Assembly: GCF_016903815.1 (NCBI RefSeq)
Contig: NZ_CP069973.1
Origin: Escherichia coli
GTDB lineage: Bacteria > Pseudomonadota > Gammaproteobacteria > Enterobacterales > Enterobacteriaceae
Reading direction: 5' to 3' (one strand)
Length of the DNA stretch: 64,000 nucleotides
Made by a program: the position numbers and the translations under genes. Of this stretch, positions 1-8,699 are shown in pieces (within the stretch, counting starts at the first letter, position 1; the number at the start of each line of letters is the position of its first letter). The notes beneath the pieces are model-generated. The model did no database searches, had not been told where the DNA came from, and was given only the letters and a program-made list of their open reading frames with translations.

Positions 1-47
1 TGAAGGAACGCGACACCCTTCACGGACTTTTGAAGTTGATGCTATGA
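1..47 (+). CDS. 3' end of an ORF truncated by the window edge (...KERDTLHGLLKLML*); candidate toxin partner of the next gene
   Basis: In-frame read from window start ends at TGA 45-47, overlapping the ATG at 44-46 of the next gene (ATGA overlap). Confidence 0.3.
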   Translation, partial: KERDTLHGLLKLML

Positions 48-232
48 AAATCAAAGAAATACGCCGCGCTTCAGGGTTGTCACAATCTAAATTTGCCGAA
101 CTTATTTCCGTAAGCGTAGACACGTTGCGTAACTGGGAGCAGGGGCGACGTTCACCGACTGGGCCTGCAAAGGCTTTGCTGCGAGCGATTGCCAATGATC
201 CGCAACATGTGCTGCAGGCACTTAACCGTTAG
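44..232 (+). CDS. XRE-family helix-turn-helix protein, HigA-like antitoxin candidate (62 aa)
   Basis: ORF track; HTH-like stretch GLSQSKFAELISVSVDTLRNWEQGRRSP; 4-nt overlap with upstream ORF. Confidence 0.55.
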   Translation: MKIKEIRRASGLSQSKFAELISVSVDTLRNWEQGRRSPTGPAKALLRAIANDPQHVLQALNR

Positions 233-316
233 AGGCATGGTTATGCCATACAGAAAGCACCAGCATTCAGAACTCCTATGAAAGCGGCATAGTGCCGCCT
301 GCTCAGGAGTTTTACT

Positions 317-529
317 ATGACCCGTAATCGTGCTGAACGTCGCCATCATATGGCGCGATTAAAAAAAATCCGCTGCCGTTATCGCACTGCAGGCGATGGA
401 AGCAAAAAAGCATCAGGTATTTGCTTTCGTACTCCCTGTATTTGTTCTTGTTGGATGTGTGGGCATCGACGCTATCATAATGGTCCCCGCGTATCGGAAA
501 TTCGTGCAAAAGCACGCTATGCGAATTAA
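317..529 (+). CDS. hypothetical small basic Cys/His-rich protein (70 aa)
   Basis: ORF with GGAG 7 nt upstream of ATG; motif CICSCWMCGH; no family recognised. Confidence 0.35.
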   Translation: MTRNRAERRHHMARLKKIRCRYRTAGDGSKKASGICFRTPCICSCWMCGHRRYHNGPRVSEIRAKARYAN

Positions 530-590
530 GGGAAAATGATGAACTATTTTAAGGAAGCACATTTTTAGAACTCTTAACAGGAGACTAAAA

Positions 591-869
591 ATGTCCACGC
601 TTAATACGCGTAAAGATAGGGATCGTAATGGTAAAGCGAAGCCACATAATCATTCAGGGATCCCAACACTTACAGGTAAATGGCGTCACCCTTCAATGGA
701 TTGTTGGGTAAACTACAGTACACCGGGCGATCATGAATGGAAGCGGCTCTATACTACGCTTCGCCGTCGCGCAGATGATCGACGCCAATGTCATCGGGTA
801 ATGCAGGGGGATGATCCAGAAGGAATCGTCTGGTTCCCGGACTGTTATCCACAAATTTACTACTACTAA
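591..869 (+). CDS. hypothetical protein (92 aa)
   Basis: ORF with AGGAG 7 nt upstream of ATG; no family recognised. Confidence 0.35.
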   Translation: MSTLNTRKDRDRNGKAKPHNHSGIPTLTGKWRHPSMDCWVNYSTPGDHEWKRLYTTLRRRADDRRQCHRVMQGDDPEGIVWFPDCYPQIYYY

Positions 870-1287
870 CAATTAAAGACCGGTTGGTGCGGCACTGACC
901 GGTCAGTTATGAATGGTAGATTTCACCTTAAACCCTGGTGCGGTAAAGCTGCTGACTTTTTCGGGTACACCATCCTGATGAAGCAAATGAACACCCAATC
1001 AAAAAAATATTCTTGAATATAAAATATTTATAGCACCCATAATTCATCCTTATTATTTGTTGTTTCTTTTCTGTAGATGTGTCCCCGCTTAATTAAAAGT
1101 AATAAACCATCCTGGGTTATTACTAAACCATTTTTGAGTAACAATTGAAATAACTGCAACTGTTACATTATCTTTGGATGCCGTCTCGCAAAAACAAAAC
1201 GACATGCAAAAATCCGCTTTTTTTAAATGATTTTTCGGCGTAATTTTCGCACATACATTAATGAGTAATATATGTAAGGTGGTGGTA

Positions 1288-1506
1288 ATGGCGATGAATA
1301 CGGTTTTTCTTCATTTATCAGAAGAGGCAATTAAACGGCTGAATAAGCTTAGGGGCTGGCGTAAGGTTTCACGATCTGCAATTTTACGCGAAGCGGTAGA
1401 GCAATATCTGGAACGTCAGCAATTCCCGGTGCGTAAAGCAAAGGGAGGCAGGCAAAAGGGGGAGGTAGTTGGTGTTGATGATCAGTGTAAGGAGCATAAG
1501 GAATGA
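1288..1506 (+). CDS. yiiE: ribbon-helix-helix (CopG-like) small regulator, 72 aa from internal ATG
   Basis: ORF track 1261..1506; GGTGG Shine-Dalgarno before ATG at 1288; LREAVEQYL motif; position upstream of fdhE. Confidence 0.6.
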   Translation: MAMNTVFLHLSEEAIKRLNKLRGWRKVSRSAILREAVEQYLERQQFPVRKAKGGRQKGEVVGVDDQCKEHKE

Positions 1507-1709: not shown

Positions 1710-1967
1710 ATGGGCGAGATATTTATGAACTCTCTGGCAGGTATAGATATGGGCAGAATTTTACTCAATTTATCGAATGAGTTGTTTAAGCAACTTGATG
1801 ATCTCGAGGTGCAGCATAATCTTCCTCGTGCGGAGCTATTACGGGAAGCGGTAGATCAATACCTGGTAAATCAATCGCAAACAGCAAGAGCCAGTGCTTT
1901 TGGCATCTGGCAAGGGAGTGAGGAAGATGGTGTCCAATACCAGCGTAAGCTGCGCGAGGAATGGTAA
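1710..1967 (+). CDS. yiiF: ribbon-helix-helix protein with VapB-antitoxin-like C-terminus; true start may be 1725 or 1749
   Basis: ORF track; paralogous to the upstream RHH ORF (LREAVDQYL); C-terminal AFGIWQG...YQRKLREEW. Confidence 0.6.
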
Positions 1968-3710: not shown

Positions 3711-4609
3711 TTGCGCTCCTCGTCTTTCTCTTCGTGCAGATTATTCTCTTCCTCATCCGCACGGTTCGGACCGACACCCACGTAGTGGAAGATACTGGCT
3801 GCGAAGGTAGCCGCAAAGCCAACAGCTGCGAGCGGTTTCCAGATGCCTTTCCAGAATTTCACGGTTTCGCTGATTTCCGGGTTCTCCGGCAAGCCATGAT
3901 ACAGATTTGGCTTGTCAGCATGGTGCAGCACGTACATAACGTGTGTACCACCAACGCCTGCCGGATCGTACAGACCCGCATTGTCGTAACCGCGAGTTTT
4001 CAGCTCCGCCACGCGCTCGCTCGCCAGCGTTTTCATCGACTCTTTCGTACCGAAGTGAATCGCGCCCGTTGGGCAGGTCTTCACGCAGGCCGGTTCTTGC
4101 CCAACCACCACGCGGTCAACGCACAGCGTACATTTGTAGACGCGGTTGTCTTCCGGGTTGAGGCGCGGAATGTCGAACGGACAGCCCGCAATGCAATAAC
4201 CGCAGCCGATGCACTGCTCGGACTGGAAGTCGACGATACCGTTGGCATACTGAATAATTGCTCCTTCCGCCGGGCACGCTTTCAGGCAGCCTGGATCGGA
4301 ACAGTGCATACAGCCGTCTTTGCGGATCAGCCATTCCAGTTTGTCGTTCTGTTCCACTTCCGAGAAGCGCATCACCGTCCACGATTTGGCACTTAAATCA
4401 TTGGGGTTGTCGTACACCCCAATGTTATTGCCGACGGTATCGCGAATGTCGTTCCACTCTGAACACGCCACCTGACAGGCTTTACAGCCGATACAGGTGG
4501 TGACGTCGATGAGTTTCGCCACTTCTTCCTGGAAGTCCCGCGCCTGAGGCGCGGGGGTCAGACCGTTAGTCGCGGAACGACGAATGATATCTTGAGATTG
4601 ATAAGCCAT
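3707..4609 (-). CDS. fdoH: formate dehydrogenase-O iron-sulfur subunit
   Basis: 300-aa ORF with multiple CxxCxxCxxxCP ferredoxin motifs. Confidence 0.94.
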
Positions 4610-4621
4610 ATGTCGTCTCCG

Positions 4622-7600
4622 TTACACCTTTTCCACATTCACAAGGAAGGACTTAAACTCTGGCGTCTGCGTGTTCGCATCACCAACGAATGGCGTTAAC
4701 GTATTGGCAATAAAGCCTTTTTTCGCAACACCTTCATAGCCCCAGTGAATCGGAATACCGATGGTATCGATATCTTTGCCGTTCGCTTTCAGCGTGCGAA
4801 TACGTTTGGTCACCACCGCTTTGGCTTTTATATAGCCACGGTTGGAGGAGACTTTCACTGTATCGCCCTGGGCAATGCCAAGTTTATTCGCCAGCGACTC
4901 ACCGATTTCCACAAACTGCTCTGGTTGCAAAATCGCGTTCAACAGCGCGTGTTTGGTCCAGTAGTGGAAGTGCTCGGTCAGACGATAGGTGGTTCCGACA
5001 TACGGGAACTTATCGGCTTTACCCAATGCTTCGGCGTCGTCTTTAAAGATACGTGCAGCCGGGTTCGAGATAACGTTTGGATGCAGCGGGTTAGTTCCCA
5101 GCGGCGTTTCAAACGGCTCGTAGTGTTCCGGGAACGGACCTTCCGCCATCTTATCGAGGGCAAACAGACGCCCCATGCCTTCCTGCTGCATGATAAACGG
5201 CCCAACGCCACTGCCCGGAGGCGCTGCGCTGTAGTCCGGAATATCCCAGCCGGTCCACTTAGTGCCGTCCCATTTCAGCAACTGACGCTTCGGATCCCAC
5301 GGGTTACCCTGCGGATCTGCGGAGGCGCGGTTATACAGAATGCGGCGGTTAAGCGGCCATGCCCATGCCCAGCCCAGCGTGTTACCGAGGCCAGACGGAT
5401 CGGCGTTATCACGACGCGCCATCTGGTTGCCCTCTGGCGTCCAGCTACCGGCGAAAATCCAGCAGCCACAGGAGGTGGTACCGTCATCGCGCAGTTGGGC
5501 GAACGAGCTAAGTTGTTGGCCTTTCTTGACGATAACCGCACCGGTTGCCGGATCGGTAATATCGGCCAGCGCCTTACCGTTGCTCTCCATCGCCACTTCT
5601 TCCGACTTCGGCTCATGCGGGATGGCGTAGTTCCAGGTCATGTTCAGCACCTGGTCCGGGTTCGCGCCACCCTGTTCGGCATACATCTTGCGCAAGCGCA
5701 GGAAGATACCGGAGAGGATCTCGCCGTCAGTCAGCGCAATCCCAGGGGCGTCCGCACCTTTCCAGTGCCACTGCAACCAGCGACCTGAGTTAACGATTGA
5801 ACCGTTCTCTTCCGCGAAGCAGGTCGATGGCAGACGGAACACTTCGGTCTGGATCTTCGACGAGTCAACTTCGTTCAGCTCACCGTGGTTCTGCCAGAAG
5901 TTAGAGGTTTCAGTGTTCAGCGGGTCGATGGTGACGAGGAACTTCAGTTTCGACAGACAACCGATCACTTTGTTTTTGTTCGGGAATGAGGCAACAGGGT
6001 TAAAACCCTGGCAGATATAGCCATTGACCTTGCCTTCTTTCATCATCTCGAAGTATTGCAGGACGTCGTAGCCTTTATCCCACTTCGGCAACCAGTCAAA
6101 GCCCCAGCTATTTTCCGCCGTCGCTTTATCACCAAAGAAGGCCTTCATCATAGAGACGAAGAATTTCGGGTAGTTGCCCCAGTAGTTTACCTGGCCTTCC
6201 AGCAGCGGTTTTGGCGTGTTGGCGGTAAGGTAGGTTTGCAGATCGGTCTGCTTCTCGCTTGGCAGCGTCATGTAACCCGGCAGGCTCTGCGACAGCAGCC
6301 CCAGGTCCGTCAGCCCCTGAATATTGGAGTGACCGCGCAGGGCGTTAACGCCGCCGCCGGCCATCCCCATATTGCCGAGCAGCAGCTGGATCATCGCCAT
6401 CGTACGAATGTTTTGCGCACCAACGGAGTGTTGCGTCCAGCCGAGGGCATACAGGAACGAGGCAGTTTTATCGTGTGCACTGGTTTCGGCGATGTATTCG
6501 CAGACTTTCAGGAACGCGTCTTTTGGCGTACCACAGATGTTTTCAACCACATCTGGCGTGTAGCGGGAAACGTGCTGTTTCAGCAAGTTCCACACGCAGC
6601 GCGGATGTTGCAGCGTGGTATCGCGTTTGGCGAAGCCGTTTTCGTCCAGTTCGTAAGTCCAGGAGGATTTATCGTACTTGCGTTTTTCCGCGTCGTAGCC
6701 GGTGAACAGGCCATCTTCAAAGCCGTAATCCTCACGCACGATAAGGCTAGCGTTGGTATAGGCTTCGGTATATTCGCGGTTGAATTTTTCATTGTTCAGC
6801 AGGTACAGCAATACGCCTGACAGGAAAGCAATGTCAGTACCGGAACGAATAGGGGCATAGTAGTCAGCCACCGCCGCCGTACGCGTAAAGCGAGGATCGA
6901 TCACAATCAGCTTCGCGCCGTTGTGAATTTTGGCTTCCATCGCCCAGCGGAACCCGACCGGGTGAGCTTCAGCGGCATTACCGCCCATCACCACGACGAG
7001 GTTGGCGTTCTTGATGTCGACCCAGTGGTTGGTCATCGCACCGCGACCAAATGTTGGAGCAAGACTTGCTACCGTTGGTCCGTGTCAGACACGCGCCTGG
7101 TTGTCGACCGCGAGCATCCCCAGCGCGCGGGAGAATTTTTGCGTTAAATAGCCGGTTTCGTTACTCGACGCGGAAGCACAAAGCATCCCGGTGGAGAGCC
7201 AGCGGTTAACAGTCACGCCTTCGGCGTTTTGCGCAATGTAGTTAGCATCGCGGTCTTCTTTCATCAGTTTGGCGATGCGATCAAACGCCTCTTCCCAACT
7301 GATTTGCTGCCATTTATCAGAACCTGGCGCACGGTATTCCGGAAACTTCAGACGGCTTTCGGAGTGGATGAAATCCACCAGGCCAGCGCCTTTCGGACAA
7401 AGTGCACCGCGGTTGACCGGGTGATCCGGATCGCCTTCGATATGGAAGATAGATGCTTTGGCGTTTTTTGCTCCGTCACCGAGGCTGTACATCAACAGCC
7501 CACAGCCTACGGAACAATAGGTGCAGGTATTACGGGTTTCGCGGGTGCGCAGCAGTTTATACTGCCGGGTTTCCGCGAGTGCTACGCTGGGTGCAAAACC

Positions 7601-7672
7601 CAGTGCCGCTGCCGTGGTGCCTGCCATACCGCCAGCGCAGATCTTAAAGAACTGCCTTCTGCTGACCTGCAT
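4622..7672 (-). CDS. fdoG: formate dehydrogenase-O catalytic subunit, selenoprotein; in-frame UGA (Sec) at 7085..7087
   Basis: Track ORFs 7085..7672 and 4622..7036 are in one frame separated only by TGA; Tat-like RRQFFK N-terminus; reading continues HGPTVASLAPTFGRGA-MTNHW after the UGA. Confidence 0.93.
7040..7084 (-). promoter_or_regulatory. candidate SECIS stem-loop directly 3' of the fdoG UGA
   Basis: mRNA after UGA contains GCAAG-U-CUUGC nested within GACCAA...UUGGUC. Confidence 0.5.
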
Positions 7673-7865
7673 GGATTGCTCCTTGTTTCGACATTGTCAC
7701 GTCCCATTTACATTCGCTTGCTGCGTGTGCAGGGAGTGGGAGTTATTTTTCTTTGCGGAAGGGGCCGCAAAGGTCCAGAATTGGCTCAATTTCCCTCCAT
7801 CCAGGAAGGGTTTGTAACAGAATACCATAATGTTGGTGTGTGTGTTCTTATCTGGTTAAGAGAAA

Positions 7866-8699
7866 GTGAAAAAAACACAGCAAAAAGAAATCGAAAATGT
7901 GACAAATGTCACAGGTGTTCGTCAAATTGAGTTATGGCGGCGTGATGATTTACAACACCCACGGTTAGATGAGGTCGCGGAAGAAGTTCCCGTTGCGCTG
8001 GTCTACAACGGCATTTCGCATGTGGTGATGATGGCGTCGCCCAAAGACCTTGAGTACTTTGCGCTCGGTTTTTCGCTTTCCGAGGGGATTATCGAAAGTC
8101 CGCGCGATATCTTCGGTATGGATGTCGTTCCTTCCTGTAATGGTCTGGAAGTGCAAATTGAGCTTTCCAGCCGCCGCTTTATGGGGTTGAAGGAGCGCCG
8201 CCGGGCGCTGGCGGGACGTACGGGCTGTGGCGTATGCGGTGTAGAACAGCTTAACGATATCGGTAAACCGGTGCAGCCGCTGCCGTTCACCCAGACGTTT
8301 GATCTCAACAAACTGGATGATGCATTACGTCATCTCAATGATTTCCAGCCAGTGGGGCAACTGACTGGTTGTACTCACGCCGCTGCATGGATGTTGCCAT
8401 CTGGCGAACTGGTCGGCGGGCATGAAGACGTGGGTCGCCATGTGGCGCTGGACAAACTGTTAGGCCGCCGGTCACAAGAAGGGGAAAGCTGGCAGCAAGG
8501 TGCGGTACTGGTTTCCAGCCGTGCCAGTTATGAAATGGTGCAAAAGTCGGCGATGTGCGGCGTAGAGATTTTGTTTGCGGTGTCTGCCGCGACCACGCTT
8601 GCTGTAGAAGTGGCTGAGCGCTGTAATCTGACACTGGTAGGTTTTTGTAAACCGGGTCGGGCAACGGTTTATACCCATCCGCAGCGTTTGAGCAATTAA
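7866..8699 (+). CDS. fdhD: formate dehydrogenase sulfurtransferase/accessory protein FdhD
   Basis: 277-aa ORF; recognised sequence; divergent from fdoG. Confidence 0.93.

Follow-up and report, generated by a model that had tools for sequence, protein, structure and literature searches.

The first 232 nt of the window (the whole 64-kb stretch of Escherichia coli DNA analyzed here) very probably comprise the last 76 codons of a higA2-like antitoxin gene, an ortholog of Salmonella sehD; this degree of confidence applies to the HigBA2/SehCD identity of the locus as a whole. Within the window, an ORF of 62 codons runs from ATG to TAG at positions 44..232 (+), and its 62-aa product contains an entire XRE-type helix-turn-helix (HTH) domain, as the first-pass annotation had reported (Pfam HTH_3, E = 4e-10, residues 3–40 of 62). 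The HTH frame (frame 2) is open from position 2 and reads EGTRHPSRTFEVDAMKIKE... up to the edge. We took the upstream sequence from NZ_CP023820.1 (locus L001; window position n corresponds to L001 8000 + n), one of many complete E. coli chromosomes that are 100% identical to positions 1..1300 of the window. In this chromosome, the frame reaches back to an ATG at L001 7942, 58 nt before the window, giving a gene for a 96-aa protein that RefSeq names nadS ('NadS family protein', WP_000356395.1). The ATG at position 44, which had been read as the start of a small gene, is the internal Met35 codon of this protein, and no Shine-Dalgarno sequence precedes it.

The small gene had also been described as overlapping, through an ATGA, an upstream ORF cut by the window edge. 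Frame 3 reads KERDTLHGLLKLML* from the edge and its TGA at 45..47 overlaps the ATG at 44..46, i.e., the ATGA at 44..47 is literally present. This ORF is not the end of a longer gene, because an in-frame TGA at L001 7988..7990 closes it 12 nt before the window and leaves 18 codons in total. These codons lie out of frame within the 96-aa gene, and the ATGA therefore marks no gene junction but arose by chance in coding sequence. The gene that does precede the antitoxin gene is a 103-aa ORF, no part of which falls within the window; its TAA and the antitoxin ATG adjoin without overlapping (TAAATG; GAGGTGGTAAATG). The motif GAGG, part of the final Arg-Trp codons of the 103-aa ORF, lies 6 nt from the antitoxin ATG and acts as the Shine-Dalgarno sequence of the antitoxin gene; no obvious Shine-Dalgarno sequence was seen for the toxin gene. 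It was thus the window edge that led to both genes being drawn wrongly. Coordinates of all features are given in Table 1.

Table 1. Features of the toxin-antitoxin locus, in coordinates of NZ_CP023820.1 (L001) and of the window.
Feature	L001 position	Window position	Strand	Sequence or basis
O1 box	7576..7592	-424..-408		Consensus TACGyCAwTGACGTA; perfect palindrome GTACGTCA-A-TGACGTAC in E. coli
O2 box	7610..7624	-390..-376		Consensus AGCyArTGGCGTA; TAAGCCA-A-TGGCGTA in E. coli
Toxin gene (103 aa)	7630..7941	-370..-59		
Antitoxin gene (96 aa)	7942..8232	-58..232		
Antitoxin gene, 3' part (codons 21–96 and TAG)		2..232	+	Open frame and NZ_CP023820.1
XRE-type HTH core (antitoxin residues 37–74)		50..163	+	Pfam HTH_3, E = 3.9e-10
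Internal Met35 codon		44..46	+	In frame with the ATG at window -58
Tail of spurious 18-codon frame-3 ORF, inside the antitoxin gene		3..47	+	Translation, MKLLKERDTLHGLLKLML*

The 103-aa protein is a homolog of the HigB-2 toxin of Vibrio cholerae (VcHigB2). The first-pass annotation had proposed extending the sequence upstream to look for a RelE/HigB-type protein, and the gene recovered in this way is neither long nor metabolic: its product matched VcHigB2 over residues 2–99 in a phmmer search of the PDB (E = 1.5e-19), and BLASTP aligned the two proteins at full length and without gaps at 41% identity. Mutagenesis has identified Arg51, Arg64, Tyr82, and Lys84 as the activity residues of VcHigB2 (PMC5416850). 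These align with R49, R62, Y80, and K82 of the E. coli toxin, i.e., all four are kept, and they are conserved in all orthologs as well as in the displayed representatives of the alignment (every second row), which share approximately 40–55% identity. The toxin family comprises 3888 clusters at 50% identity (E ≤ 1e-3).

The E. coli toxin falls below the gathering threshold of PF06296, the Pfam family that holds VcHigB-2 (17.6 vs 27 bits), and this score reflects a divergent member of the family and not a different fold. The sub-threshold score is probably also the reason why RefSeq labels the protein 'hypothetical protein' in many genomes; other names in RefSeq and UniProt are 'type II toxin-antitoxin system RelE/ParE family toxin' and 'Toxin HigB-2'. 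Some toxin orthologs have a precomputed PF06296 hit. Neither the toxin nor the antitoxin matched PF05015 or PF09907, the Pfam families of the classical HigB lineages, at E ≤ 0.1. In PADLOC, the toxin matched no defense-system model and the antitoxin gave only generic HTH matches. We also used AlphaFold2 to model a toxin-linker-antitoxin fusion from a shallow alignment. The toxin part of this model had a pLDDT of 78–93, and its best PDB matches by Foldseek were HigB2 chains (TM 0.80–0.85, rmsd 1.7–2.9 Å, 101 columns).

The 96-aa protein matched the antitoxin HigA-2 of V. cholerae (VcHigA2), and not a regulator family outside the antitoxins, in a single-sequence phmmer search (E = 8e-9) and in a profile search (E = 1.8e-10) whose match was limited to residues 30–89, i.e., the HTH domain; residues 1–29 showed no profile-level similarity to VcHigA2. 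It barely passes the NCBIfam NadS model (NF041265; 60.4 bits vs a curated cut-off of 60), which spans residues 5–89 of 96. No explanation of the name 'NadS' was found in the literature, where one paper reports no more than the expression of a K-12 nadS paralog. The protein failed the models of MqsA (PF15731, 22.4 vs 30; TIGR03830, 40.2 vs 61.8) and YiaG (PRK10072, 35.7 vs 110), all of which match it in the shared HTH region only.

The model of the antitoxin superposes on the C-terminal domain of HigA2 (5j9i) with a TM of 0.71–0.79 (Foldseek), and its predicted recognition helix includes D60, R63, N64, and R69. These residues align with R68, E71, N72, and R77, which contact bases in VcHigA2 (PMC11006873). 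N64 and R69 are retained, whereas the other two contacts are replaced (R68 by D60 and E71 by R63), in line with the differences at the inner operator positions. In the fusion model, given its linker and shallow alignment, antitoxin residues 3–21 are predicted to form a helix and residues 28–31 a strand, with a pLDDT of up to 92; when the antitoxin was modelled alone, the same segment had a pLDDT of 62–69 and no strand, and four of the five models were poor. In V. cholerae, the disordered N-terminus of VcHigA2 folds into helix 3–22 and strand 28–37 on the toxin (PMC5416850). The predicted difference between the fusion and the lone models mirrors this folding and lends soft support to a similar process in E. 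coli. By the same analogy (cf. PMC5416850), the 34 N-terminal residues omitted from the 62-aa gene model are the part that would neutralize the toxin.

We surveyed 5426 complete E. coli genomes and found the module in 2636, in one copy each and almost always on the chromosome. Both genes were present in 2635 of the 2636; the presence of the toxin gene in the source genome of the window is itself taken from the identical genomes. The sole antitoxin-less genome, EC5931, has a frameshifted toxin gene adjoining IS1, and in another strain an IS1 lies within the toxin gene and the antitoxin gene is intact. These two anecdotal cases fit an active toxin. K-12 lacks the module upstream of yiiE, in agreement with the first-pass annotation: in the module's place, its locus between fabY (yiiD) and yiiE carries 517 bp of unrelated, AT-rich sequence, and homology to the window picks up again near position 877. 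In the literature, the E. coli locus appears as TA27 relE-1/yiaG-1 of the AIEC strain NRG857c and the UPEC strain CFT073 (PMC7232551). TA27 corresponds to NRG857_19405/19410 (312 bp and 291 bp) and is located between yiiD and fdhE; K-12 and HS do not have it (PMC7232551). That paper is a bioinformatic listing in which the toxin domain is 'not identified' and the antitoxin is placed under the YiaG superfamily (PMC7232551).

The same pair of 103-aa and 96-aa genes lies directly beside a convergent fdhE gene in Salmonella, Enterobacter, Yokenella, and Cronobacter. Relative to the E. coli proteins, identity in these four genera is 69–73% for the toxin and 79–86% for the antitoxin, compared with 88–94% for FdhE. 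An alpha/beta hydrolase gene (75% identity to the E. coli protein) precedes the pair in Salmonella and Enterobacter; a LysE-family gene takes its place in Cronobacter and no gene is called there in Yokenella. The two genes are tightly spaced throughout: the stop/start junction is TAGATG in Salmonella, TGATG (a 1-nt overlap) in Cronobacter, and TAAATG in Enterobacter and Yokenella as well as in E. coli. In two Salmonella contigs, the toxin gene is intact and the antitoxin gene is frameshifted.

For both genes, pN was 0.08–0.21 against a pS of about 0.5–0.9, with synonymous sites saturated. The comparison of these sequences indicates that both the toxin and the antitoxin gene are under purifying selection. 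This extends to antitoxin codons 1–34, i.e., those upstream of Met35, for which pN was 0.12–0.21 and pS 0.47–0.82. We also considered whether an isoform reduced to the HTH might start at Met35, and rejected this: the position is Leu in the Cronobacter ortholog, and codons 1–34 are under purifying selection.

When the regions upstream of the toxin gene were aligned across the five genera, two boxes, O1 and O2, were the only blocks that stayed invariant, the remaining sequence having diverged. Each of the 12 loci that carry the module has a single O1, always at the same distance from the ATG, and the K-12 locus has none. Its core, GTACG-N7-CGTAC, is the same as that of the V. cholerae HigA2 operator, which has been footprinted and crystallized (TGTACGC-N5-GCGTACA; PMC11006873). 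A scan of the 64-kb window at up to two mismatches revealed no further O1-like site, and there is therefore no sign of a local regulon.

The promoter may lie among these boxes. A -35-like element (TTGACG or ATGACG) inside O1 and a -10-like element (TACTCT or TCTAAG) between O1 and O2 form a plausible candidate promoter, judged by motif and position. The only consensus match in a sigma-70 scan, TTGTTA-N16-TATAAT, ends 1 nt before the toxin ATG. This is probably not the promoter, given a -10 element only 1 nt from the ATG and a TATAAT that, among the other four genera, is conserved only in Enterobacter and not in Yokenella, Cronobacter, or Salmonella.

Comparison with characterized systems shows the closest relative to be SehC/SehD of Salmonella enterica (STM4032.2N-STM4033; SL3979-SL3980), which is the ortholog of the E. 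coli pair. The order of the genes and the lengths of the proteins (103 aa and 96 aa) are the same, the toxins and antitoxins share 71% and 86% identity, respectively, and are collinear over their full length, and both pairs have the O1 and O2 boxes upstream. They also occupy the same slot, i.e., alpha/beta hydrolase gene, toxin, antitoxin, and then convergent fdhE. We identified the Salmonella toxin of our alignments (loci L011-L013) as SehC because its computed mass of 12,326.1 Da equals that of the SehC entry (SL3979, 12,326; PMC4366850). The two loci differ in that E. coli has ORFs of 70 aa and 92 aa, yiiE, and a yiiF-like gene between the antitoxin gene and fdhE, and in that Salmonella has sehAB across the hydrolase gene, whereas none is present in E. 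coli NZ_CP023820.1. SehCD was scored as a functional toxin-antitoxin pair, both toxic and neutralizable (PMC4366850). Its first description reported autorepression by SehD, binding in EMSA, two palindromes, and no virulence phenotype (PMC3868539, retracted); according to the same article, SehC had no effect on growth in LB and sehD deletion mutants were viable (PMC3868539, retracted). The EMSA and reporter data on SehD come from this article alone, as does much of what has been described of SehCD, and we give these data little weight because the article was retracted.

The V. cholerae HigB-2/HigA-2 system (PDB 5JA8, 5JAA, 5J9I, 8A0X) shares with the E. coli pair the toxin fold, the active-site residues, and the toxin-first order. 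Both antitoxins have a short N-terminal toxin-binding segment, predicted in the case of E. coli, followed by an XRE-HTH domain for dimerization and DNA binding. However, their N-termini have no detectable sequence similarity, two of the four base contacts differ, and so do the inner operator positions. There is a single footprinted operator in V. cholerae (PMC11006873), whereas the enterobacterial promoter region has two boxes, and V. cholerae HigBA2 resides in the superintegron, in contrast to the conserved chromosomal slot of the E. coli pair.

The relationship to classical HigB/HigA systems (Rts1; K-12 YgjN/YgjM; SehAB) is more distant. Like the E. coli pair, these systems have the toxin gene first and combine a toxin of the RelE superfamily with an XRE-HTH antitoxin. 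Unlike it, they belong to the PF05015/PF09907 lineages and have antitoxins of approximately 138–142 aa with another domain layout (PMC7160566). The layout had originally been described as of the HigB/HigA type. This holds insofar as the module is a type II system with the toxin first and the antitoxin second, tightly coupled, and with proteins of the RelE superfamily and XRE-HTH type; its lineage, in contrast, is that of HigB-2/HigA-2 and not of classical Rts1. SehAB was considered as a Salmonella counterpart and rejected, given that SehB has 142 aa and resembles K-12 HigA (PMC7160566), and that Y53, D61, and H88 to Y98 of SehA do not map onto the E. coli toxin.

On these grounds, we assign the pair with high confidence to the HigBA2/SehCD-type type II toxin-antitoxin operons, within the HigB-2/HigA-2 lineage. 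Its exact biochemical activity, judged by homology, is probably that of V. cholerae HigBA2. By this analogy, the E. coli proteins would be expected to show toxicity, RNA cleavage, neutralization, and DNA binding. The toxin, with its RelE fold, would act as a ribosome-dependent mRNA endonuclease through R49, R62, Y80, and K82. The antitoxin would form a dimer held by its C-terminal XRE-HTH domain, with approximately 34 N-terminal residues that would be poorly ordered alone; binding to the toxin would fold residues 3–21 into a helix and residues 28–31 into a beta-strand and thereby block the toxin. The HTH dimer would bind O1 and O2 and so repress the operon.

A first alternative is that the module is a domesticated or attenuated relic, in which the toxin is weak or inactive natively and the 96-aa HTH protein (NadS/SehD) is kept mainly as a regulator, of its own operon and possibly of other genes. 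The position beside fdhE is fixed across genera and synonymous sites are saturated, which is unusual for a mobile addiction module. NCBI treats NadS as a family of its own and not as an antitoxin, and the two Salmonella contigs with an intact toxin and a frameshifted antitoxin would also suit such a relic, as would the viability of sehD deletion mutants and the failure of SehC to limit Salmonella growth in the retracted description (PMC3868539). We nevertheless regard it as improbable: no ortholog has lost any of the four catalytic residues and purifying selection acts on the toxin gene, SehCD was toxic and neutralizable when assayed (PMC4366850), and the one genome of 2636 that lacks the antitoxin has a frameshifted toxin gene, while another genome has IS1 in the toxin gene. 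A wider regulatory role also sits poorly with the single O1-like site at up to two mismatches, the window holding no other.

A second alternative retains the RelE fold of the toxin but gives it a non-canonical target. There is precedent in a related organism: SehA, a HigB-like toxin of Salmonella, is not an RNase and instead inhibits RNase III (PMC12817084), which means that fold homology alone is no proof of activity. The sub-threshold PF06296 score of the E. coli toxin would also be compatible with such divergence. However, SehA is unrelated in sequence, with 11.6% identity to SehC (PMC3868539, retracted), and its key residues do not map onto the E. coli toxin. Moreover, SehA lacks the canonical active site, whereas the E. 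coli toxin keeps the R/R/Y/K set of VcHigB2 and its model superposes on HigB2 at 1.7–2.9 Å. These differences make a target like that of SehA very improbable.

Refuted by the upstream TGA, finally, is the literal reading in which a stand-alone 62-aa XRE protein starts at position 44 and is coupled through the ATGA to a longer frame-3 toxin ORF. In its favor are the presence of an ATG at 44 and of a TGA at 45..47, and the complete HTH in the 62-aa product alone. Against it, the frame-3 ORF has only 18 codons and is closed by the upstream TGA, the HTH frame extends to an upstream ATG preceded by GAGG, codons 1–34 are conserved at the protein level in five genera and their pN is far lower than their pS, and Cronobacter has Leu in place of Met35; the N-terminal region is also covered by both the NadS model and phrog_2104.

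The HigBA2/SehCD-type operon identified here is real, and the first-pass annotation had its class right and its anatomy wrong. It is also an ordinary and catalogued module, already known from RefSeq and UniProt annotation, from the survey of E. coli toxin-antitoxin systems, from the studied SehCD ortholog, and from the solved V. cholerae structure. The discovery value is small and the benefit is one of correction: at a window edge, gene models can go wrong, as here, where an internal Met passed for a start and an out-of-frame ATGA for a junction. In addition, the E. coli locus is now tied explicitly to both SehCD and HigBA2, by a shared operator core among other features. A broader reading, which we consider unlikely, is that the fdhE-adjacent pair is an ancient, vertically kept locus of the Enterobacteriaceae with a host function, not a selfish or mobile addiction module, and was lost in lineages such as K-12. 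If true, this would account for the unchanging position of the pair, for purifying selection on its two genes, and for the weak toxicity reported for SehC, and the host function may then be phage exclusion, growth control induced by stress or by the host, or a regulatory role of the NadS/SehD repressor.

The segment missing from K-12 has its right-hand edge at window position ~870..905, equivalent to about 4,078,950 in NC_000913.3. K-12 homology starts again there at a short, hairpin-like element (GACCGGT...GACCGGTC) that reads AAAGACCGGTTGG... In K-12, an unrelated AT-rich sequence of 517 bp replaces the genes for the alpha/beta hydrolase, the toxin and the antitoxin, together with ORF70 and ORF92.

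These two ORFs occur at this position in E. coli only; in Salmonella, Enterobacter, Yokenella, and Cronobacter, by contrast, fdhE lies directly 3' of the antitoxin gene. The ORF70 product matches the phage family phrog_4499 (E=8e-14), while a search for a family match to the ORF92 product found none. Further downstream, yiiE and a yiiF-like gene form a tandem CopG pair with no toxin gene adjoining either member. The C-terminal tail of the yiiF-like product resembles a VapB antitoxin, and the two proteins may be orphan antitoxin-type regulators.

Features downstream of the antitoxin gene
Feature	Window position	Location	Description
ORF70	317..529	between antitoxin gene and yiiE	70-aa product, basic, Cys-rich (CxC...CxxC)
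ORF92	591..869	between antitoxin gene and yiiE	92-aa product, WP_001306650.1
yiiE	1288..1506		ribbon-helix-helix (CopG) gene
yiiF-like	1710..1967		ribbon-helix-helix (CopG) gene, 85 aa

In two Salmonella enterica contigs (L003 and L004, 3313..3610), the antitoxin gene is frameshifted past about codon 10 and the toxin gene is intact, encoding a variant (P0139) recorded on 641 contigs; the frameshifted gene would yield at best an 81-aa product that is missing the beginning of the helix predicted to bind the toxin. Both genes are intact in most Salmonella (L010-L013). Within E. coli, IS1 interrupts the toxin gene of strain WP4-S17-ESBL-08 (L014 1571..2658), leaving the antitoxin intact. In strain EC5931 (L015 2571..3616), the toxin gene is frameshifted and the segment from the antitoxin gene to yiiE is deleted beside IS1; this is the only one of the 2636 module-carrying genomes in which the antitoxin is missing. 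Such IS1-linked decay of the pair in E. coli is sporadic.

One paper reports a PGAP-annotated 'nadS' gene in K-12 itself (BW25113 locus tag RS26030), which is expressed under laboratory conditions and is not in EcoCyc (PMC12350097); an orphan paralog of the NadS/HigA2 type may therefore be present elsewhere in K-12. Literature searches did not reveal where the name NadS comes from.

The fabY-fdhE gap of S. Typhimurium (STM4030.S-STM4033 in the literature) also contains an unrelated second toxin-antitoxin module, sehAB, which is separated from sehCD by the hydrolase gene. At the equivalent position, E. coli strain 7/2 contains a pseudogene and a transposase (4510..6324 of the NZ_CP023820.1 locus, L001). 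The fabY-fdhE gap acts like a hotspot for small modules.
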